Positions 8,406 through 54,571 of a stretch of 64,000 nucleotides of DNA are shown in pieces. The stretch is from NCBI GenBank assembly GCA_016203225.1, contig JACQNC010000006.1:8552-72551 (forward strand), read 5' to 3'. The translations under genes were made by a program, and so were the position numbers. The stretch's first letter is position 1, and the number at the start of each line of letters is the position of its first letter. The notes under the pieces were generated by a model that was not told the origin of the DNA, did no database searches, and saw only the letters and a program-made list of their open reading frames with translations. The DNA is from Candidatus Woesearchaeota archaeon. GTDB lineage: Archaea; Nanobdellota; Nanobdellia; Woesearchaeales; ARS49.

Positions 8406-9638
8406 TTAGCGGACAAAACCCACGATGAGGTTCACGATGACCATTCCGAGGATGGCCATGCTCACTCCTTTCCAGATGCGCATGCCGCCGCTAGGACTTC
8501 CGGTGAGACGCTCCAACGCGAGCTTCAGCATCCTACCGCCGTCGATCGGGCCGAGCGGGATGAGGTTGAACAGGCCGATGCCGATGCTCAGGATGAACAC
8601 CCAGATGATAAGGCTGATGAAGAACAGGAGCGTCTGCACGCCGAGTTCACCGTACTTCGCGAGCGCGTCCTGCGCGTATTCCGTCGCGGTGCTGAACCCT
8701 ATGCCGAGATAGCCGCGCGTCGCGTCCTCGGGATGCTCTCCGAGCAGGATCTGCACATCGCGGTCGCCGATCGAAAGCGTCACCGCCTCGTTCGGCTTCA
8801 AGGACGTGATGCGCTCCAGGGTCCTGTCGCGCTCACTCACAGGGATGCCGTCCACGGCGGTGATCTTGTCACCGATCGCGAGCCCTGCGCGGAACGCGGG
8901 GCTGTTCGGCTCTATCTTGTTGACCTCGAAATGCGAGAACGTGATGAGCGATGTCCCGACCTCGGTGACGTCGAATATCGCCGTCCTGCTCGTGACGTCG
9001 TAAGGTATCAACGGAGAGGCGTCGATGCCGAACAGGAACACCATCGCGACGGCCATGAAGATGTTCGCGACCGGTCCCGCGGCAAAAACCGAAAGCTGCT
9101 GGCTCGCGGGGCGCTTCACCAATTGCTTCTCGTCAGGCTCCACGAAAGCCGCAGGGATTACCGGCACCAGCGCGGCCAGGAACGCGAAGCCCGAGCTCTT
9201 GACAGTGATGTTGTGCGCTCGCGCCAGCACGCCATGCGCGAACTCGTGGATGACCGCGATGACGAATATGCTGATTATCCAATAAGCGAAAGGCACGAAG
9301 AACACGCCCTTGGCCTCGAACGGCAGCACGGGCTGGATCCCCGGAGCGGCCTCGGGCGTGAGGAACAACATCAACGTGCTCTTGACCAACTGATAAGTGA
9401 TGAGCGCCATCCCGAGGAAGCCGATTACTATCGACGCGTACCCGAACCACTGCATCAGCCTCCGGAACCGCGAACCGAACCAGTCCATCAGCCCGATGCC
9501 CCAGGTCGTCCTGAGCATGACAAAATATAGTAACGGCCCTAGAAGCTTCTGGACGATTATCCTCTTGCGGAACACCCACAAGACGGCAGACATGATGACT
9601 ATGAATACTACCGCGAGCGCAGCGTGGATGCTCACCAT
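8406..9638 (-). CDS. site-2 protease (M50 family) with PDZ domain
   Basis: 410 aa polytopic membrane protein with HEFAHG (HExxH). A PDZ-like segment (NSPAFRAGLAIGDKITAVDGIPV) and a downstream LNLIPLGPIDGG motif. Confidence 0.75.
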   Translation of the reverse strand: MVSIHAALAVVFIVIMSAVLWVFRKRIIVQKLLGPLLYFVMLRTTWGIGLMDWFGSRFRRLMQWFGYASIVIGFLGMALITYQLVKSTLMLFLTPEAAPGIQPVLPFEAKGVFFVPFAYWIISIFVIAVIHEFAHGVLARAHNITVKSSGFAFLAALVPVIPAAFVEPDEKQLVKRPASQQLSVFAAGPVANIFMAVAMVFLFGIDASPLIPYDVTSRTAIFDVTEVGTSLITFSHFEVNKIEPNSPAFRAGLAIGDKITAVDGIPVSERDRTLERITSLKPNEAVTLSIGDRDVQILLGEHPEDATRGYLGIGFSTATEYAQDALAKYGELGVQTLLFFISLIIWVFILSIGIGLFNLIPLGPIDGGRMLKLALERLTGSPSGGMRIWKGVSMAILGMVIVNLIVGFVR

Positions 9639-9668: not shown

Positions 9669-9676
9669 TATTTAAG
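9669..9676. promoter_or_regulatory. TATA-like element (TATTTAAG / CTTAAATA), possibly bidirectional
   Basis: It lies about 34 nt upstream of the S2P ATG (9638, - strand). It lies about 33-36 nt upstream of the start of repeat copy A on the + strand. Confidence 0.4.
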
Positions 9677-9704
9677 CCTTACTCGCGTCGCCGTCCTTGC
9701 ATTT

Positions 9705-9800
9705 CTGCCCAAGCACGATTGACGTAACATTACGGCTATCGATTCGATTGCGATAAAGCCACTACAAACCTGCTTGGGGAGTTCACGCCTGGGACGAAAG
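9705..9800 (+). repeat. structured intergenic repeat family, copy A (candidate sRNA or PATE/MITE-like element)
   Basis: Contains CACGATTGACGT (9714-9725), ATCGATTCGA (9738-9747), GCCACTACAAACC (9758-9770) and CACGCCTGGGACGA (9784-9797). A perfect 8-bp closing stem CCCAAGCA (9708-9715) / TGCTTGGG (9771-9778). Internal hairpin GGC-TATCG...CGATA-GCC. Confidence 0.7.
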
Positions 9801-9838
9801 CTCACGCAAGATGTGATTGTCATGCTAAAAACGAAGAA

Positions 9839-10000
9839 CTAACGCTTCCGCTTCGGCTTGAAAGCGTGGCTCGCGCAGCTCCTGCACGTCACCTTTCCGG
9901 CCAAGACCTTCATGTTCGAGGTGCGCATCACGGCCTTGCATCTGCGGCAGACGAACCTGTTGCGGAACATCCGCGCCTCTGCTTCTGGGAACCGTGCCAT
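9839..10000 (-). CDS. rpl40e: 50S ribosomal protein L40e
   Basis: 53-aa ORF not in the track: MARFPEAEARMFRNRFVCRRCKAVMRTSNMKVLAGKVTCRSCASHAFKPKRKR. It has the L40e zinc-ribbon pattern. Its ATG overlaps the aIF5A stop (TAATG). Confidence 0.8.
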   Translation of the reverse strand: MARFPEAEARMFRNRFVCRRCKAVMRTSNMKVLAGKVTCRSCASHAFKPKRKR

Positions 10001-10407
10001 TATTCTTCAGCCTTCGATTTCAACTGCTTCATGACCTTCTCGCCGAGGATGTTCCAGTAGATTATCTGGGCACCCTCGACGACGCTCGCCTTGAGCTCTT
10101 CAGGGATCTTGAGGTCGAACGTCTCATAGTTCTCGGCGTCCATCACGTTCGCCGCGTCCCCGGAGACGCTCAGCACCTGGGCGGTCTTCTTGTCTATCAG
10201 CGGGACTTCGACGTTGTCGTGCGCAGGAAGCACGATCTCGCGCTTCTTCTCGTCCATCAATCCGATGGCGGTGATGCGCGCCTTCGCGTGCCCGTGCTTG
10301 CCCGACTTGGAAGTCTCCATCGAGACGACCTTGCACGCCACACCATCGACGATGATGTAGCTGCCTTCCTTCATCGAGCCAGCATTCACAACCTTTGTGG
10401 TCATCAC
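10000..10407 (-). CDS. eif5a: translation initiation factor 5A (aIF5A, hypusine-containing)
   Basis: 135 aa with the hypusination loop SKSGKHGHAKARITAIGL. TATA (ATTTAAAAA on the - strand) is upstream. Confidence 0.92.
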   Translation of the reverse strand: MMTTKVVNAGSMKEGSYIIVDGVACKVVSMETSKSGKHGHAKARITAIGLMDEKKREIVLPAHDNVEVPLIDKKTAQVLSVSGDAANVMDAENYETFDLKIPEELKASVVEGAQIIYWNILGEKVMKQLKSKAEE

Positions 10408-13731: not shown

Positions 13732-14592
13732 ATGAAAGCGGTGATGCCAACCCTCGTCGCGCTGCTGCTCGTGGCTTCTGTCGGCGCGGTCAGCATCAAG
13801 GAATCGGTCGAGTCGTTCTTCATCGACGAAACCCCTGATGTCGTCATCGGCGACCAGAAACACCTGGACGACCAGTACGCAGCGAACGGTTTCATGAACG
13901 AGTTCGGCCAGAAGGACTACGTCCTGGCGTCGAAAGCCGCGGTGAAAGCGCTCGTCGTCATCGGCGGCCCGTGCGCGAACCCTGTCTGGGCGGACTATTC
14001 CTCCGAGACGTGCGGCACCTGGGACCAGCCAGAAGGCAAGGCCGTGATCGTCTCTGCGCAGAAGGACGGCAAGAACGTGCTACTGATCGGCGGCACGTCG
14101 GGCAAGGACACGCGCGCGGCAGCGAAACACGCGCTCACCAAGTTCAGCGAGGCGATATTCAACAACGCCCGAGTCGTCCTCGACACGGAAGGCCTGCCAT
14201 TGGCGAGCGACCAACTAATAGTGTACACCACGACCAGCACGCTCGAGCCCGGCCAAAGCTCAGCAAAGGGCGCGGCGGTCATCCACATCCCAAAGGATCC
14301 CAGCGGAGGCACACAGGACCTCGCGGACGGGCTGCGCAAGTACCTCCTCGCATCGTATCCTTACGCGACAGTCGTCATCGAGGAATCAAACCAGCTCACG
14401 CTCACGGACATCGACGGCAAGGTCTACATCAAGATGAACGAGGCTCCCTTGATCTCGGTCGACGAGGACGCGCCTGCGGACCACGTCGTCATCGCATCGG
14501 CGGCAGCGTTCTGGCTCGCCGGCCAAGGCCTCGACATCCAAGCAGACACCACGCACAACCAGCTCATTCTCGATGACATGAAGTTCGGATAA
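13732..14592 (+). CDS. secreted or extracellular hypothetical protein
   Basis: N-terminal signal/anchor MKAVMPTLVALLLVASVGAVS. TATA GTTTATATT lies 27 nt upstream of the ATG at 13732. No family recognised. Confidence 0.5.
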   Translation: MKAVMPTLVALLLVASVGAVSIKESVESFFIDETPDVVIGDQKHLDDQYAANGFMNEFGQKDYVLASKAAVKALVVIGGPCANPVWADYSSETCGTWDQPEGKAVIVSAQKDGKNVLLIGGTSGKDTRAAAKHALTKFSEAIFNNARVVLDTEGLPLASDQLIVYTTTSTLEPGQSSAKGAAVIHIPKDPSGGTQDLADGLRKYLLASYPYATVVIEESNQLTLTDIDGKVYIKMNEAPLISVDEDAPADHVVIASAAAFWLAGQGLDIQADTTHNQLILDDMKFG

Positions 14593-14690
14593 ACCCCGGC
14601 GTGATGAATTTTGCCACGATTGTAGTGGTTCTATCGATTCTGGGAACGCAAGAACGTCAAACCTGCTTGGACAGAAAAGCAGGGGAAGAG
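14593..14690 (+). repeat. structured intergenic repeat family, copy B (divergent)
   Basis: CCACGATTGTAGTGG hairpin (14614-14628), ATCGATTC (14633-14640), CAAACCTGCTTGG (14658-14670). The 3' arm is instead locked in a local 7-bp hairpin CCTGCTT/AAGCAGG. The copy begins right after the stop codon at 14592. Confidence 0.5.
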
Positions 14691-35306: not shown

Positions 35307-36386
35307 TCAGAACCTATCCAGCGTAGTCGGCTTCTCCTTCGTAGCGATGTCCACTATGGTGGTCGTGCCTTCTGCGCCGCCGATTATCTTATTGGCGGTC
35401 ACGAACCCCCCTCTTTCCAGCCTATCGATCTTGCGCTGGAAAGTCTTGTACGTGCCGAAACCGCCCACTTCCTTGTACAGCCGGAACAGGTCCCCTATCT
35501 TGGAGCCAGAATTCTTCTTGACCACATCGAGGATCTGCTTCGTGTCATCTCCGAGATCGTCCGGCTTGCGGATCACGAACTCCTTCGCCTTCGTGATGGC
35601 GACGTTCGCGTGCTCGAACAGGATGCGCTTGCTGTTCGCGTACTCGGACGCCAAGGCAGCCTCACGGAACAGGAACATTCCGACCCGTATGTCCTTGGCC
35701 TCGAACGCGTAGGATGTCATGGCGTTTAGCGCGTCATCGGTGAGCGCGCCCGGGATCAAAGCCAACTCGGCACGGTGCTTCAGGATGCCGCTCACTTCCT
35801 CTTTCGAATAACTCCTGAACTCGATGATCTCCGGAGTCATACGGGAACGGATACGCTCATCGATGTCCTCGAGCCATTCCTTGTAGTTCGTGACCAAAAA
35901 CACGGCTTTCTTGTACAACTCCTCCAGGATGGAGTACAGGAAGTCATGGTCCTCGACCTTGTCGACCTCATCGAAGACGAAAACGCCCGCCTTCTTGTTC
36001 ACTATGTTCTTGATGACCTCGAACAATTCCTCGGTGCGCTTGTTCTGCGTGAACTTGTAGCCCAGCTGCTGGCAGATCTCCTCGAAGATCTTGAACGTGG
36101 TGTTCTTCTGCCAGCAATTGATGTATACCATCTCGACGTCGTCCGTCGTGTCCTCGAGCTCGCGCAACACCCACTTGATGGCTGCGGTCTTGCCGACGCC
36201 CGGCGGCCCGTGAACGAGCGCGTTCCTACCAGGCCGGCCCTCGAGCAAAGGCCGGATGCACGCGGCGGCGCGCTTCTGCTGCAACTCTCTATAAGGAAGA
36301 AGCTTAGGGACGAACTCGAGGTCGAGCGCGTCCTCGTTCCTGAAGAGCGTCTCACCACCCTTTTGCGAAAACAACCCCATCACCAA
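35307..36386 (-). CDS. cdc6: Orc1/Cdc6 replication initiator
   Basis: Walker A LVHGPPGVGKTAAIKWV, Walker B VFVFDEVD, and a C-terminal winged helix. Confidence 0.9.
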   Translation of the reverse strand: MVMGLFSQKGGETLFRNEDALDLEFVPKLLPYRELQQKRAAACIRPLLEGRPGRNALVHGPPGVGKTAAIKWVLRELEDTTDDVEMVYINCWQKNTTFKIFEEICQQLGYKFTQNKRTEELFEVIKNIVNKKAGVFVFDEVDKVEDHDFLYSILEELYKKAVFLVTNYKEWLEDIDERIRSRMTPEIIEFRSYSKEEVSGILKHRAELALIPGALTDDALNAMTSYAFEAKDIRVGMFLFREAALASEYANSKRILFEHANVAITKAKEFVIRKPDDLGDDTKQILDVVKKNSGSKIGDLFRLYKEVGGFGTYKTFQRKIDRLERGGFVTANKIIGGAEGTTTIVDIATKEKPTTLDRF

Positions 36387-39059: not shown

Positions 39060-39134
39060 AGCGGGGTGGGGAAGCTTGGAGTTCCCGGCGGGCTCATAAC
39101 CCGCAGCTCGCACGTTCAAATCGTGCCCCCGCTA
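39060..39134 (+). tRNA. initiator tRNA-Met (anticodon CAT)
   Basis: A1:U72 acceptor end (AGCGGGG/CCCCGCT). Three consecutive G-C pairs closing the anticodon loop (GCGGG-CTCATAA-CCCGC). T arm GCACG-TTCAAAT-CGTGC. Followed by TTTTTT. Confidence 0.88.
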
Positions 39135-45159: not shown

Positions 45160-45726
45160 ATGGACGTCATCACGAAAGACGACTTCGTGCAGAACCTGAG
45201 CAGATACTACAAGCAAATAAAGGAAGGCAAACTCTTCATACACCCCACTGACACGATCTACGGAATCGGGTGCGACGCGACGAACTCCAAGGCCGTGCTG
45301 CACGCCCGCGACGCAAAGAACCGCCACACGAAGGCGTTCAGCGTCATCGCGCCCGGCAAGGATTGGATCCGCGAAAACTGCACGGTCACGAAAGAAGGCG
45401 AGAAGTGGCTCGAGAAGCTCCCGGGACCGTACACGCTCATCTTCCACCTCAAGAAGAAATACGCCATCGCGCCGGAAGTGAACCCTGCACAGGACACGCT
45501 CGCGGTGAGGATCCCGTCGCACTGGTTCAGCAAAGCCGCGCAGGAGCTCAACATCCCGATCATCACGACGGCAGCCAACAAGGTCGGACAGCTCTTCATG
45601 ACGACGCTCGACGACCTCGACCCCGACATCGCCAAACACGTCGATTTCACGATCTACGAAGGCGAGAAGAAGGCTAAGCACAGCACCGTGATCGACGTCA
45701 CGCAAGGCGGGAAGATAGTTTACTGA
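45160..45726 (+). CDS. L-threonylcarbamoyladenylate synthase (YrdC/Sua5 family, short form)
   Basis: LFIHPTDTIYGIGCDATNSKAV...KNRHTKAFSVI..., 188 aa. Confidence 0.8.
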   Translation: MDVITKDDFVQNLSRYYKQIKEGKLFIHPTDTIYGIGCDATNSKAVLHARDAKNRHTKAFSVIAPGKDWIRENCTVTKEGEKWLEKLPGPYTLIFHLKKKYAIAPEVNPAQDTLAVRIPSHWFSKAAQELNIPIITTAANKVGQLFMTTLDDLDPDIAKHVDFTIYEGEKKAKHSTVIDVTQGGKIVY

Positions 45727-45838
45727 CGCTCCCCGCTCGTTCTCCCCCGGCACGATTGACGTAGCTTTATCGGTATTTATCAGATAGCCAAACACCACCA
45801 CCAACCTGCTTGGGGCAGCAATGCCTGGGACGGGGGCG
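45727..45838 (+). repeat. structured intergenic repeat family, copy C
   Basis: CACGATTGACGT (45751-45762), CACCACCACCAACC then TGCTTGGGG (45807-45815), GCCTGGGACG (45823-45832). The inner stem CCCCGGCA/TGCTTGGGG is pairable with one G-U and one bulge. Outer pairing CGCTCCCCG (45727-45735) / CGGGGGCG (45831-45838). The copy starts right after the stop codon at 45726. Confidence 0.6.
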
Positions 45839-45907
45839 ACACCGACGTTTTGCCAAACATTTATAAAGCTCCCGTCGGTAAACGGGTTAGGGTGTTCTGA
45901 GAATAAT

Positions 45908-46522
45908 ATGACCGCAGACAAGCTAAAGATACTCGCCGTAGGAGACGTGCATGGCGACAAGGCCTTCATCAAGAGCCTTGCCGACACCGCAGCGAAGGAG
46001 AACGTCGATTTGGTGGTCCTCGCGGGCGACCTCACGTACGCGGACCAGAGCACGGACGGCATCATCGGACCGTTCCTCGCGAAAGGAAAGAAAGTCCTGT
46101 TGGTGCACGGCAACCACGAGACACCCGCGACAGCCGACTTTCTGGCGCAACTCTACAACGCGACGAACCTCCACGGATACGGAATCGAATTGAAAGGCAT
46201 CGGAATCTTCGGCGCAGGCGGCGCCGCCATAGGACCCAACCCGACGAGCGCAACAGACATCTACGAAAACCTGAAGCACGCGCACGACAAGGTCAAGCAC
46301 CTTGCGCGCAAACTAATGGTCGTCCACGAGCACCCGAGCGATTCCAAGATGGAGATCGGCGGCATGTTCCCGGGCAGCTGGGCCGTGCGAAAGGCCGCGG
46401 AGACGTTCAAACCCGACATCGTCGTCTGCGGTCACATCCACGAGGCAGGCGGCATCGAAGAGAAGATCGGCAAGACACGCGTAATCAACGTGGCACGCAC
46501 GCCGAAAATCATCGAACTCTAG
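45908..46522 (+). CDS. calcineurin-like metallophosphoesterase
   Basis: KILAVGDVHGD, LAGDLT, HGNHE, GHIHEAGG. Start trimmed to the ATG at 45908. Confidence 0.75.
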   Translation: MTADKLKILAVGDVHGDKAFIKSLADTAAKENVDLVVLAGDLTYADQSTDGIIGPFLAKGKKVLLVHGNHETPATADFLAQLYNATNLHGYGIELKGIGIFGAGGAAIGPNPTSATDIYENLKHAHDKVKHLARKLMVVHEHPSDSKMEIGGMFPGSWAVRKAAETFKPDIVVCGHIHEAGGIEEKIGKTRVINVARTPKIIEL

Positions 46523-48376: not shown

Positions 48377-49061
48377 GTGATTTCTTCCACACCCGCATTT
48401 GCTGAATTGTGTGGCATCCATGCAGGTGACGGTTGGATATCTTCGTACAATTATGAGATTGGTTACGGAACGGCAACGTACGAAGCTCCGTATTTCCTGT
48501 ATGTCATGAATCTGTATCAAGAATGCTTACCATTGAAAGAAAATATCAGGATCTTATGGCGAAGAGCGATTGAATTGAGAATACAATCCAAGGAATGCCA
48601 GCAGATTCTTCAGGAAGCGGGGTTTCCGCGGGGCAGCAAGCTCGACCATCTACGGATTCCTGCATTTGTTTGGTCGAAACCTGAATATTTACGCAGATTT
48701 CTGCGAGGCGTGATGGATACTGATGGCCACGTGCATTGGAGGAAAAGTGTCAACCGCAAGTACTTGGTTCTGACTTGGACGACTGCATCAGACGCATTTG
48801 CTAGCGACATCGTTCGTGCGCTGCACGTGCTGGATCTGTGCGCCCATGAGCAAACGTTCATTCCGCGATACAAAGACCGCATAAGAAGGCGTCGGGTACA
48901 CTGCATCTCCATCAGTAGAAAGAGCGATGTCGTATTCTACTTGAGACATATAGGATTCAAAAATCCGCGAAGATGGGAACAAGTTTTACGAAACAAAGAG
49001 GAATTGCTCAGATACAACACCGCAAACCTTTTTAAGCAAACCCCGGAATTCTCGACGTTAC

Positions 49062-49084
<23 letters not shown>
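48377..49084 (+). CDS. free-standing double-motif LAGLIDADG homing-endonuclease-like protein
   Basis: Two LAGLIDADG-type motifs, LCGIHAGDGW and FLRGVMDTDGHV. GTG start with TATA AAATATAAAAAC about 29 nt upstream. AT-richer than the flanks. The last 23 nt run into tRNA-Val. Confidence 0.65.
49029..49036 (+). promoter_or_regulatory. TATA box (TTTTTAAG) for tRNA-Val, inside the LAGLIDADG ORF
   Basis: Centre is about 30 nt upstream of the tRNA 5' end. Confidence 0.5.
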
Positions 49085-49133
<49 letters not shown>

Positions 49134-52101: not shown

Positions 52102-53343
52102 TCAATGCACTTCTTCCGTGCGTTCCTCTTTCACGAACAGGAACACGATGAAGGACAGCACGAAGAACACTAGCAAGGACAGCACCGCGAGGCGCTGGTT
52201 GCCGGTCGCGGCGGATACGCCGCCGAACACCAGCGGACCGAGCGTCGCGGACAGCTTCGACGCGAGCGCATTGAAACCGAACAGTTCGGTCGATTTCCCC
52301 AAGGGCACGATCAGGCTCAGCAACGAGCGTCCGACGGCTTGGCTGGACCCGACGACGGCGCCGGTGAGCACGGCAAGCGCGTAGAACATCGCGGGCGTCT
52401 CTACGACAGACATCCACACGGTCACCACTACCCATCCCGCGACCGCACAGAGCAGGACACGCTTGCTCCCGAAACGGTCCGCCACCTTTCCCGCGAGCGG
52501 CGTCACGATGAACCCGACCGCTTGGACGATCAGGAACAGCACGAACACCGCAGACAGCGGCAGACCGAGCGTCGTCGTCGCGAAGATTCCGGTGAAGCTG
52601 AAGATCGTCACGAGACCGTCGTTCAACAGATAGAACGCCAAGAAAAAGAGGAACACGTTCTTGTATTCATGGACATGGGAAAGCGTGTGCATAACCCGCC
52701 GAAATCCGTGCCGAACGAACGCGCCGGCCTGCGCGACGCCTCGATCGCGGACCCAGAGAAACGCGGGCAGCGCGAACACGAGGAAGAACAGCGCGATCAG
52801 TGGAAACGCGAACCTGACTGTAGGCGCATCGATTCCCGCTCTGTACAACGGCAGGAGGAGTATCGCAGCGAGCGCGCCGCCGAGATAACCGAGCCCCCAC
52901 GCGAACCCTGACACGGTGCCAGCGTGCTGCGGTTTCGCGATCACGGTGAGGAAACTGTCGTACAGCACGATGGCGTTCTCGAACGCGTAATTCGTGATGA
53001 TGAACAGGATGCTCGCGAGCACAACGGTCCCGGGGCCGGTGAAGTACAGCGACGCTGTCCCGAAAACGGCGACAAGCACGAAGAAGACGAACACCGGCTT
53101 GCGTCGCGCGGCAGCATCCGCGCTCGCACCGATGAACGGCGCGCTCAACCCACCCAACAGGATACTCACCGACACGATGATGCCCCACCACAGGTCCGCG
53201 TTCGGTCCGCCGCCCACGATGACGTCGCGGAAATAGACCGAGAACAGAAGCGAGATGATGAGCAAAGAATATGACGAGTTCGCGAAGTCGAAGAACGCCC
53301 AACTCACGACCTCTTTCTTGTTCGGGATGCCCTTTAGGAACAC
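52102..53343 (-). CDS. MFS transporter (UMF1/Atg22-like family)
   Basis: SWAFFDFANSSY near the N-terminus and about 12 TM helices. GTG start 26 nt from the TATA centre. Confidence 0.75.
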   Translation of the reverse strand: MFLKGIPNKKEVVSWAFFDFANSSYSLLIISLLFSVYFRDVIVGGGPNADLWWGIIVSVSILLGGLSAPFIGASADAAARRKPVFVFFVLVAVFGTASLYFTGPGTVVLASILFIITNYAFENAIVLYDSFLTVIAKPQHAGTVSGFAWGLGYLGGALAAILLLPLYRAGIDAPTVRFAFPLIALFFLVFALPAFLWVRDRGVAQAGAFVRHGFRRVMHTLSHVHEYKNVFLFFLAFYLLNDGLVTIFSFTGIFATTTLGLPLSAVFVLFLIVQAVGFIVTPLAGKVADRFGSKRVLLCAVAGWVVVTVWMSVVETPAMFYALAVLTGAVVGSSQAVGRSLLSLIVPLGKSTELFGFNALASKLSATLGPLVFGGVSAATGNQRLAVLSLLVFFVLSFIVFLFVKEERTEEVH

Positions 53344-53365
53344 AGCTTATGGGAAGACGTGCGCG

Positions 53366-53372
53366 TTATAAA
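53366..53372. promoter_or_regulatory. TATA (TTATAAA) for the MFS gene, also correctly placed for + strand transcription of repeat copy D
   Basis: Centre 53369 is 26 nt from the GTG at 53343 (-) and about 33 nt from CCACGATTG at 53402 (+). Confidence 0.45.
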
Positions 53373-53383
53373 CCTTGCTTTGC

Positions 53384-53540
53384 GCCCCGGCTCTGCTGTT
53401 GCCACGATTGACGTGGTTTTACGGGCAGAACGTAGCGTTCTGCTGTACAGCCGAGACCTTCGGGCTCGGCATGTATCGCAATCGATTCGAAAGCAGAAAT
53501 GCCACCACAAACTTGCTGGGAAACTCACGCCTGAGACGAC
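53384..53540 (+). repeat. structured intergenic repeat family, copy D (expanded by about 60 nt)
   Basis: CCACG-attga-CGTGG hairpin (53402-53416), TTACGG, ATCGATTCGA (53481-53490), GCCACCACAAAC (53501-53512), CACGCCTGAGACGA (53526-53539). Stem CCCGGC (53386-53391) / GCTGGG (53515-53520). Two extra hairpins relative to copy A: GCAGAAC-gtagc-GTTCTGC and GCCGAG...ttcg...CTCGGC. Confidence 0.7.
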
Positions 53541-54548
53541 TCACTGACCCTGGAACGCCGCCGCGACGATCAGCGGGAACAGTATGGTGGCATCGCCGAA
53601 CACCTTCACGTGATCGGCGTCGGCCGCGATCTTGCCCCAAGAGACGGCCTCTTCTGGCTCTGCGCCCGAGTCAGAACCGTCGTATTCGACCGCGGTGTTG
53701 ACGTACACCGCGTATTTCGCGCCCTCGCGGAACATGTTGGCGTTGCAGATCATGTGCTTCACGAGCCCTGCGCCGAGCACGATGATTCCGGTCGAAGGCG
53801 CGTTGATCGCGAGGTCGTTGAGCTTCGACGCGTCCTGCGCGATCTCGAGCCTAAGCTCCGGATGGTTGACGCGGAAGAAGTACATTATGTCGCCGATGCT
53901 GCCGTCAGTGATGGCGTGGCAGAACACGGGGATCTTGTGCTTGGCAGCCCAGTAATAGATGCTCTCGGGATTATCGATGCGCTCGCCCATAAGCCAGATG
54001 AGCTCGCTCGGCGTGATGAGATGCCCTGTCTTCTTCTGTTCCGCGAGAACGTCGTTCAGGATCGGGGTCAGGAAGTCCTCGAATGCGCAGTACCTGTCAT
54101 TCGGCACGAAGATGTTGCCCGTGCGGTTGATGCCTTGCTCGCGCAACGCTGCGCCCTTAGCGCGGAAGTCGCCCAGCACGAAAGGCTTCATGCACTTGAT
54201 GAAGTCCTCCTCGATGCCGCCCGCGGTCGTCACGAGCACGTCCACCATGTTGTGCTTGACCAAGTGCAGGATGGCCTCGCGCACGCCTGACGAGACCATG
54301 TTGCTCGTGTAGCCGAGGAATAGCCGCAGCCCGTCCTTGCGGTCAGCACGCATGTGCTTGATGATGGCGACAGATTTCGCGAGATGCGTCGCCTGGAATC
54401 CTGTGGATCCTGAGGCCTTGATGAAAGAATCTATATCGAACGGCTTGGAGAAATCCATGCCTTTGATGAAGGTTTCAGCCTGCGGCTCTGTCGACCGCTT
54501 CCATATCGCTTGCTTCGCCTTCTCGAGCTTGTCTTTAGGGACCCCCAT
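53541..54548 (-). CDS. dys: deoxyhypusine synthase
   Basis: 335 aa with ...VLVTTAGGIEEDFIK..., ...NTAVEYDGSDSGAEPEEAVSWGKI.... Start set to the ATG at 54548, 27 nt from the palindromic TATA GTTTATAAAC. Confidence 0.9.
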   Translation of the reverse strand: MGVPKDKLEKAKQAIWKRSTEPQAETFIKGMDFSKPFDIDSFIKASGSTGFQATHLAKSVAIIKHMRADRKDGLRLFLGYTSNMVSSGVREAILHLVKHNMVDVLVTTAGGIEEDFIKCMKPFVLGDFRAKGAALREQGINRTGNIFVPNDRYCAFEDFLTPILNDVLAEQKKTGHLITPSELIWLMGERIDNPESIYYWAAKHKIPVFCHAITDGSIGDIMYFFRVNHPELRLEIAQDASKLNDLAINAPSTGIIVLGAGLVKHMICNANMFREGAKYAVYVNTAVEYDGSDSGAEPEEAVSWGKIAADADHVKVFGDATILFPLIVAAAFQGQ

Positions 54549-54571
54549 ACAATCGGCAGGCACGAAGGCCG

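Follow-up and report, generated by a model that had tools for sequence, protein, structure and literature searches.

Short imperfectly palindromic repeats, probably mobile, in the genome of a DPANN archaeon (Candidatus Woesearchaeota)

Introduction

The ERIC/IRU elements are imperfect palindromes of about 127 bp that lie in transcribed intergenic DNA, with a central inverted repeat as their best conserved part. Some copies carry internal insertions, the presence of copies varies between related genomes, and the enzyme that mobilises them is unknown. In bacteria, REP and ERIC elements have been suggested to act as hairpins at the 3' ends of genes. The IS200/IS605 family is common in archaea; to our knowledge, REP/RAYT systems are lacking in archaea altogether, and no REPIN-RAYT-like system has been described in them.

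In PMC3733652, REPs tagged with GTAG or CGTC are described from bacterial phyla only. A census made with MITE-Tracker includes a Woesearchaeal genome with 105 MITEs/Mb (PMC11602168), so that such elements are already known in the clade. Mobile DNA in reduced DPANN genomes has been little studied. The repeats described here were found in the genome of a DPANN archaeon, Candidatus Woesearchaeota, in a window of 64 kb (the whole stretch of DNA that was analysed). Proteins encoded beside the repeats assign this DNA to a Candidatus Woesearchaeota MAG (protein MBI4144859.1).

Results

Four copies in the window

The preliminary description of this DNA had placed an element at 9705-9800 and counted five copies of it. 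A repeat is present there, and it is a member of a real family that had been uncatalogued until now, although as a kind of element it is ordinary; the extent proposed was too short, as the palindrome spans about 9683-9810. Profile HMM and covariance-model (CM) searches found four copies in the window, of about 100-175 nt, all on the plus strand as judged from the asymmetry of their arms:

9683..9810, + strand, copy A: a complete, if imperfect, palindrome; core arms 9705-9742 and 9744-9781, centre TCGA-T-TCGA
14593..14690, + strand, copy B: divergent copy, CM score 67 bits
45727..45851, + strand, copy C: between the Sua5/YrdC stop codon (45724-45726) and the TATA box of the metallophosphoesterase gene (about 45860)
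53376..53550, + strand, copy D: between the deoxyhypusine synthase (DHS) and MFS transporter genes
53419..53472, + strand, internal insertion specific to copy D: about 55 nt, unique in the window

The homology is far above chance in both kinds of search (nhmmer E = 1e-31 to 1e-5; CM E = 1e-17 to 1e-25), and the count had to be lowered. An nhmmer profile made from the three obvious copies gave a fourth match at 14611-14688 and no others in the window, and a fifth copy was detected there neither by a richer nhmmer profile at E<=200 nor by the covariance model. Perfect matches to the 12-mer CACGATTGACGT lie at three places (9714-9725, 45751-45762 and 53403-53414); by our own arithmetic, about 0.008 exact matches to a 12-mer of random sequence are expected on the two strands together (128 kb). 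The verbatim blocks reported as common to A and D (CACGATTGACGT, GCCACYACAAAC, CACGCCTGRGACGA, ATCGATTCGA, TTACGG and CTCAC) were all recovered, and the 8-bp enclosing stem of copy A, CCCAAGCA at 9708-9715 with TGCTTGGG at 9771-9778, is real. The four copies share no conserved ORF, and their density is 4 per 64 kb, or about 60/Mb.

Position between neighbouring genes

In the sample of about 11 copies from all genomes, 10/11 occupy, in one orientation or the other, the space that separates a stop codon from the TATA box of the following co-directional gene; only a diverged member (L027, see below) does not. The gaps occupied by copies A to D are those between the genes for L40e and M50 protease, S-layer-like protein and tRNA-Pro, Sua5 and metallophosphoesterase, and DHS and MFS transporter, respectively. 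Copy A is flanked by the L40e stop codon (9839, minus strand) and, on its other side, by the M50 protease TATA box, and copies B and C begin directly at the upstream stop codon, which for B is that of the S-layer-like gene (14590-14592); B ends before the TATA box of tRNA-Pro (14751). Three features that adjoin copies A and D are the following:

9669..9676, - strand, TATA box of the M50 (site-2) protease gene: TATTTAAG, about 30 nt upstream of the ATG at 9638
53365..53372, - strand, TATA box of the MFS transporter gene, whose start is at 53343
9839..10000, - strand, presumed ribosomal protein L40e gene: 53-codon ORF MARFPEAEARMFRNRFVCRRCKAVMRTSNMKVLAGKVTCRSCASHAFKPKRKR

None of the copies has a promoter of its own. 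The TATA-like TATTTAAG had been put forward as a signal for plus-strand transcription of copy A, but it serves the M50 protease gene on the minus strand, because the spacing from TATA box to ATG is the same in a relative of 67% identity that lacks the element. Both boxes adjoining A and D lie about 26-30 nt upstream of minus-strand start codons, and the one at 53365-53372 belongs to the MFS gene and is not a promoter of copy D.

The 53-codon ORF beside copy A is taken for ribosomal protein L40e on the evidence of its sequence, Pfam giving no more than a weak zinc-ribbon match; its presence explains why the DNA on that side of the element is about 97% identical to that of the close relative. 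The gene lies directly downstream of aIF5A (10000-10407, minus strand) and is easily overlooked in length-filtered ORF lists. A conserved T5 tract (9826-9830, minus strand) separates its stop codon from copy A. Copies A and D stand just 3' of aIF5A/L40e and of the gene for the aIF5A-modifying enzyme deoxyhypusine synthase (53541-54563, minus strand), respectively. This pairing was judged a coincidence because the close relative lacks D; the other copies flank unrelated genes.

Some copies extend into the final codons of a gene and provide its stop. In three independent cases, D and both copies of the metagenome locus L024, the upstream gene terminates at the TGA within the terminal TGAGT(G/C) motif of the element; in copy D this TGA lies inside the terminal CTCAC/GTGAG block:

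53541..53543 of the window, - strand, DHS stop codon TGA supplied by copy D
36..38 of L024, - strand, stop codon supplied by the element
4447..4449 of L024, + strand, stop codon supplied by the element

At the other end of a gap, the public gene call for the metallophosphoesterase uses an ATG inside copy C (45821-45907) and gives 233 aa, and in a repeat-free relative (L004, 6950) the gene starts at the equivalent of window position 45908 and encodes 203 aa. Copy C has probably caused the start call to be over-extended.

Elsewhere in the window, an Orc1/Cdc6 gene (35307-36386, minus strand) indicates that a replication origin may be near. A free-standing protein of 235 aa with a LAGLIDADG_3 domain is encoded at 48377-49084 (plus strand), the called 3' end of which overlaps the start of tRNA-Val (49062-49133).

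Occupied and empty sites in related genomes

The close relative, present in Logan run SRR32573209, is about 94-95% identical to the genome of the window in protein and about 85% in DNA, and holds three copies. Sites A and B are occupied in both genomes (its copies are called A' and B'). Copy D is wholly missing from the 95% relative (L030), in which only 27 nt separate the stop codon of DHS from the ATG of the MFS gene. The window has about 175 nt in between, and there the native gene end CAAAAGTAA has become CAGGGTCAGTGA and the C-terminus of the protein reads ..FQGQ* instead of ..FQK*. An insertion would fit this difference far better than a deletion that chanced to restore both a stop codon and a promoter.

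Site C also differs, as 104 nt (45748-45851) are missing from the 94% relative (L006) with conserved flanks. About 20 nt that resemble the 5' outer arm of the element (TCCCGCTCGTTCTGCCC) stay behind there, and because of this remnant the polymorphism at C may be a deletion rather than an empty target. At site B of the relative (L008, 6050-6095, minus strand, upstream of B') 21 extra nt, ATTTCTGCCCACGCTCTCACT, were observed, which look like a fragment of a 5' arm joined to the 3'-terminal CTCAC block. They resemble the remnant at C, and the two may be the footprint of a recurrent internal deletion.

Other syntenic DNA was free of the element. Over the 22.5 kb syntenic with window positions 15.6-38.3 kb, copies were found in neither the window genome nor the close relative. 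Site A is empty in the 67% relative (L025), in which 12 nt separate the L40e stop codon from the TATA box, and no canonical copies were found in the 17-21 kb syntenic loci of three relatives with 63-67% identity (M50 protease). Copies have been gained or lost within the divergence that separates genomes about 85% identical in DNA.

At their shared site A and A' differ by about 25-30%, like the adjacent non-coding spacer, and B and B' differ more. The 5' arm reads CACGATTG in 4/4 window copies and CAGGTTTG in two of the three copies of the relative, with a degenerate CAGGTGG in A'; the 3' arm reads TGCTTGG in window copies A-C and TGCTGGG in D, against TGCCTGG in all three copies of the relative. 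These genome-specific variants hold even at the shared sites A/A' and B/B', a pattern that speaks for turnover or gene conversion inside each genome rather than for a functional RNA conserved by vertical descent.

Occurrence in other genomes and metagenomes

A strict three-block pattern was scanned against 185,579 GTDB genomes and gave three chance actinobacterial matches only. Among 12 matches in a scan of JGI metagenomes, family members were confined to L020 and L024, both from Ga0307473 (soil-type), with three to four copies: two in L020, and in L024 one that is complete and one cut by the contig end. No family members were found in a scan of viral contigs, or by blastn against phage, plasmid and E. 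coli collections.

A diverged member was found in a relative of 63% identity (L027, 13047-13157, GCA_964550175.1), between convergent genes. It keeps the inner block CGATTGGACGTAGCGTTACGGCAATC, with 24/29 nt in common with copy A, and its enclosing stem is perfect over 12-13 bp (CTTTTTACCGCC/GGCGGTAAAAAG) and unrelated to that of the family. Selection acting on a folded molecule could likewise produce this.

Contigs were seen to end at or in copies of the repeat in Logan contig L011 of this organism (positions 1-47, copy B) and in L024 (positions 1-40), which suggests that the family breaks short-read assemblies. In a further relative, of 58% identity, an RtcB RNA ligase gene with an intein was observed (L007, 14511-17441, minus strand), with the Archease gene adjoining.

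Palindromic architecture and folding

The core arm CCCAAGCA[C/G]G[A/T]TTG[A/T][C/A]GT pairs with AC[T/C]ACAAAC(C)TGC[T/C]TGGG, an outer arm such as (T)CCCCGGC.. pairs with ..GCYGGGGA, and the centre lies around TATCGATTCGAT, which is itself nearly palindromic. The 5' block of the close relative, CCCAAGCAGGTTTGACGT, matches base for base the reverse complement of ACGTCAAACCTGCTTGGG, the 3' block of window copy B, and because the one mirrors the other the element is one long imperfect palindrome. What had been described as conserved blocks within an enclosing stem are the two arms of that single palindrome.

The core arms of copy A form the longest inverted repeat in the window. When each copy was aligned with its own reverse complement, z was 4.8 for A, 3.4 for A', 2.8 for E' and 5.3 for F1, and five copies (B, B', C, D and G) were not above shuffles. 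In a ten-copy alignment 66% of the arm cells paired, compared with 34-51% for slid partners. A dyad-symmetric core of at least 14 bp is kept in three genomes, GCYKGGG-like motifs recur along the arms, and conservation peaks at the inner hairpin, away from the termini.

Most copies, folded as RNA, give one long hairpin with bulges that is only modestly more stable than shuffles, with z-scores from +1.35 (copy C) to -4.05 (copy A, minus strand, -54.8 kcal/mol) and -0.5 for F2. The hairpin can form on either strand, and no bias of stability towards the sense strand was detected: four copies were more stable on that strand, three equal and three less. RNAalifold, run with three and with eight copies, retained a 7-bp core stem only. 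The insertion of copy D forms two hairpins, at 53424-53443 (near-perfect) and 53450-53470. Covariation was looked for in the ten-copy alignment, and compensatory changes were not in excess: 4 pairs had double changes, fewer than the 7.9 +/- 1.6 of column shuffles, and 500/500 shuffles were at or above the observed value.

The small hairpin with an AUUGA loop, previously taken as conserved, was seen in the window copies only (disrupted in B), apart from a weak 2-bp version in L027. The copies of the close relative and of the metagenome read CAGGTTTGACGT/CAGGTTTGTCGT at this position and pair there with the 3' arm instead.

No known RNA family was matched by the copies: only tRNAs reached Rfam gathering scores across the window, and nothing better than E of about 3 was obtained around A, C and D with Rfam 15 at E<=10. 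A tRNA or tRNA-half was rejected, ARAGORN finding just seven ordinary tRNAs; one call, tRNA-Met (CAT) at 39060-39134 (plus strand), was not reported by the Rfam tRNA model at its gathering threshold. By eye, the element fitted neither H/ACA RNAs, which have an ACA box following the lower stem, nor C/D boxes nor a K-turn, and the opposing arm residues are A·A and C·U, not the tandem G·A of a K-turn.

Discussion

The family is repeated, palindromic, present or absent at given sites in near relatives, patchily distributed and confined to dispensable spacer, and it lacks the hallmarks of RNA genes. Its copies lie in gene-free gaps after stop codons, the only dispensable DNA in a compact genome. 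They are non-coding, shorter than 500 bp and multicopy, with inverted arms and insertion polymorphism at D (L030), C (L006) and A (L025). These lineage-restricted, short, imperfect palindromes are probably selfish, non-autonomous repeats of the kind represented by MITEs, REPINs and ERIC elements.

Such repeats would be spread by a trans-acting enzyme encoded elsewhere in the genome, which might be a Y1/HUH-type transposase that recognises the folded single-strand hairpin, as in REP/RAYT or IS200/IS605. With low confidence, this is favoured over DDE cut-and-paste because no clear target duplication was seen and the inner hairpin is the conserved part. Filled and empty sites at D and C showed no clear direct repeat, the flanks having diverged and the termini being approximate. 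Neither the window, where about half of the ORFs were scanned against Pfam and the others covered by locus gene tables, yielded a transposase gene, nor was one found in the gene tables of about 140 kb of related Woesearchaeal loci, no Y1_Tnp match was obtained in the 64-kb window and short Logan contigs, and solo arms possibly flanking an IS were not found. Any effect on the host, for example as a 3'-UTR hairpin, is probably incidental.

The preliminary description had offered two readings. Its protein-recognised mobile element comes close to the evidence, given the presence and absence of copies in near-identical genomes, the palindromic architecture and the patchy phyletic spread, whereas its functional structured RNA is left unsupported by elements with no promoter of their own, mixed orientation, modest fold z-scores and neither strand bias nor an excess of covariation. 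In its main version, the latter reading takes the copies for genes of structured small RNAs, each transcribed on its own, in which single-stranded blocks are conserved and stems vary. Blocks are indeed kept across copies, the inner one even in the 63% relative, the hairpin can fold, with -4.05 as the lowest z, and stem-loop insertions are tolerated, as in copy D. We nonetheless consider small RNA genes very unlikely. The TATA boxes by A and D are spaced correctly for the M50 and MFS genes and conserved without the element, and B and C start straight at a stop codon and lack promoters. Orientation is mixed with respect to neighbouring transcription, same-site copies diverge about as fast as neutral spacer DNA, 2/4 window copies are missing from the 94-95% relative, and no Rfam match was obtained. 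The generic marks of a structured RNA gene (compensatory changes, own promoter, fixed strand) were not found.

Host-selected cis-acting hairpins, that is, read-through 3'-end structures that stabilise the mRNA, aid termination or insulate the next promoter, would account for copies that all follow a stop codon and, save for the L027 member, all stand just before the next TATA box, that fold on either strand and that are kept at A and B in two genomes; the perfect stem of L027, built from a different sequence, also agrees with it. This explanation is compatible with mobile repeats and does not exclude them, but as the reason why the palindromes, whatever their origin, are kept it is unlikely. 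Two copies (C and F2) fold no better than, or hardly better than, shuffles, the transcribed strand is not consistently the more stable one, covariation is not in excess, and the 94-95% relative dispenses with D and C. At A the T5 tract precedes the element, so termination probably occurs before it. The location itself is equally where purifying selection in a compact genome would leave room for a selfish element. Immobile palindromes that recur as protein-binding sites and serve the chromosome, in nucleoid organisation, segregation or replication, might explain the dyad-symmetric core kept in three genomes, the single strand of all four window copies and the GCYKGGG-like motifs along the arms. 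Their sites, however, are unconserved in near relatives and absent from the syntenic DNA of distant ones, the arms decay independently, and no origin-centred polarity is visible because copies in the same orientation lie on both sides of Orc1/Cdc6 (35.3-36.4 kb); this role is very improbable.

A more specific form of the mobile-repeat reading would make the family an archaeal counterpart of REPIN-RAYT, in which a domesticated Y1/HUH transposase, encoded by one gene of the DPANN genome, propagates the repeats as folded single strands. Such an enzyme would recognise the inner block CGATTGACGT..TTACGG..ATCGAT, and stems might be re-created or homogenised by fold-back copying, which would account for both the perfect, unrelated stem of L027 and the genome-specific arm variants. 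We regard this form as quite improbable.

On the reading as non-autonomous mobile repeats, the filled and empty sites document palindromic elements that are or recently were active in a reduced (~1 Mb class) DPANN genome. Repeats of this kind can rewrite gene ends, as the element that supplies the deoxyhypusine synthase stop codon does; they explain assembly breaks and could mislead gene callers and ncRNA screens. A dedicated Y1/HUH enzyme, if found, would raise their importance, since REPIN-like systems are not known from archaea.

Comparison with described repeats

The palindrome-associated transposable elements (PATEs) derived from IS200/IS605 resemble the family in that no clear target duplication is seen and a hairpin-forming sequence is the conserved feature. 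They differ in having distinct left-end and right-end subterminal hairpins, where a single global palindrome is found here, and neither a TnpA/TnpB gene nor a conserved target tetranucleotide was seen in our case. With classical MITEs (Correia elements of Neisseria, Sulfolobus SM1-SM4) the family shares short, non-coding, multicopy and intergenic copies, inverted arms and insertion polymorphism, and its density is of the same order as in the Woesearchaeal genome of the MITE-Tracker census. However, target duplication, sharp terminal inverted repeats and a parent IS with matching ends were not found, and conservation is internal and not terminal.

In most copies the core arms carry GTAG or GACG (complement of CGTC) at their inner end, which may recall the unpaired tags of REP units. 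REP units, of 20-40 nt, have their own stem-loop, whereas the arms here pair with each other and do not fold by themselves.

In architecture and genomic behaviour the family most closely resembles ERIC/IRU elements and REPINs. Like the REPINs of REPIN/RAYT systems, it consists of inverted doublets that fold into one long hairpin, extragenic, about 100 nt in length and placed after genes, with conserved stem imperfections, genome-specific variants and no visible target duplication. It differs from them in its DPANN host and its apparently modest copy number, and the DNA that could be inspected showed neither a RAYT gene nor an IS200-like one. From ERIC it differs in the host, which belongs to another domain of life, and blastn against 5,426 complete E. 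coli genomes gave no match to the sequence; the likeness is one of build, and the 55-nt internal insertion of copy D parallels the insertions of ERIC elements.
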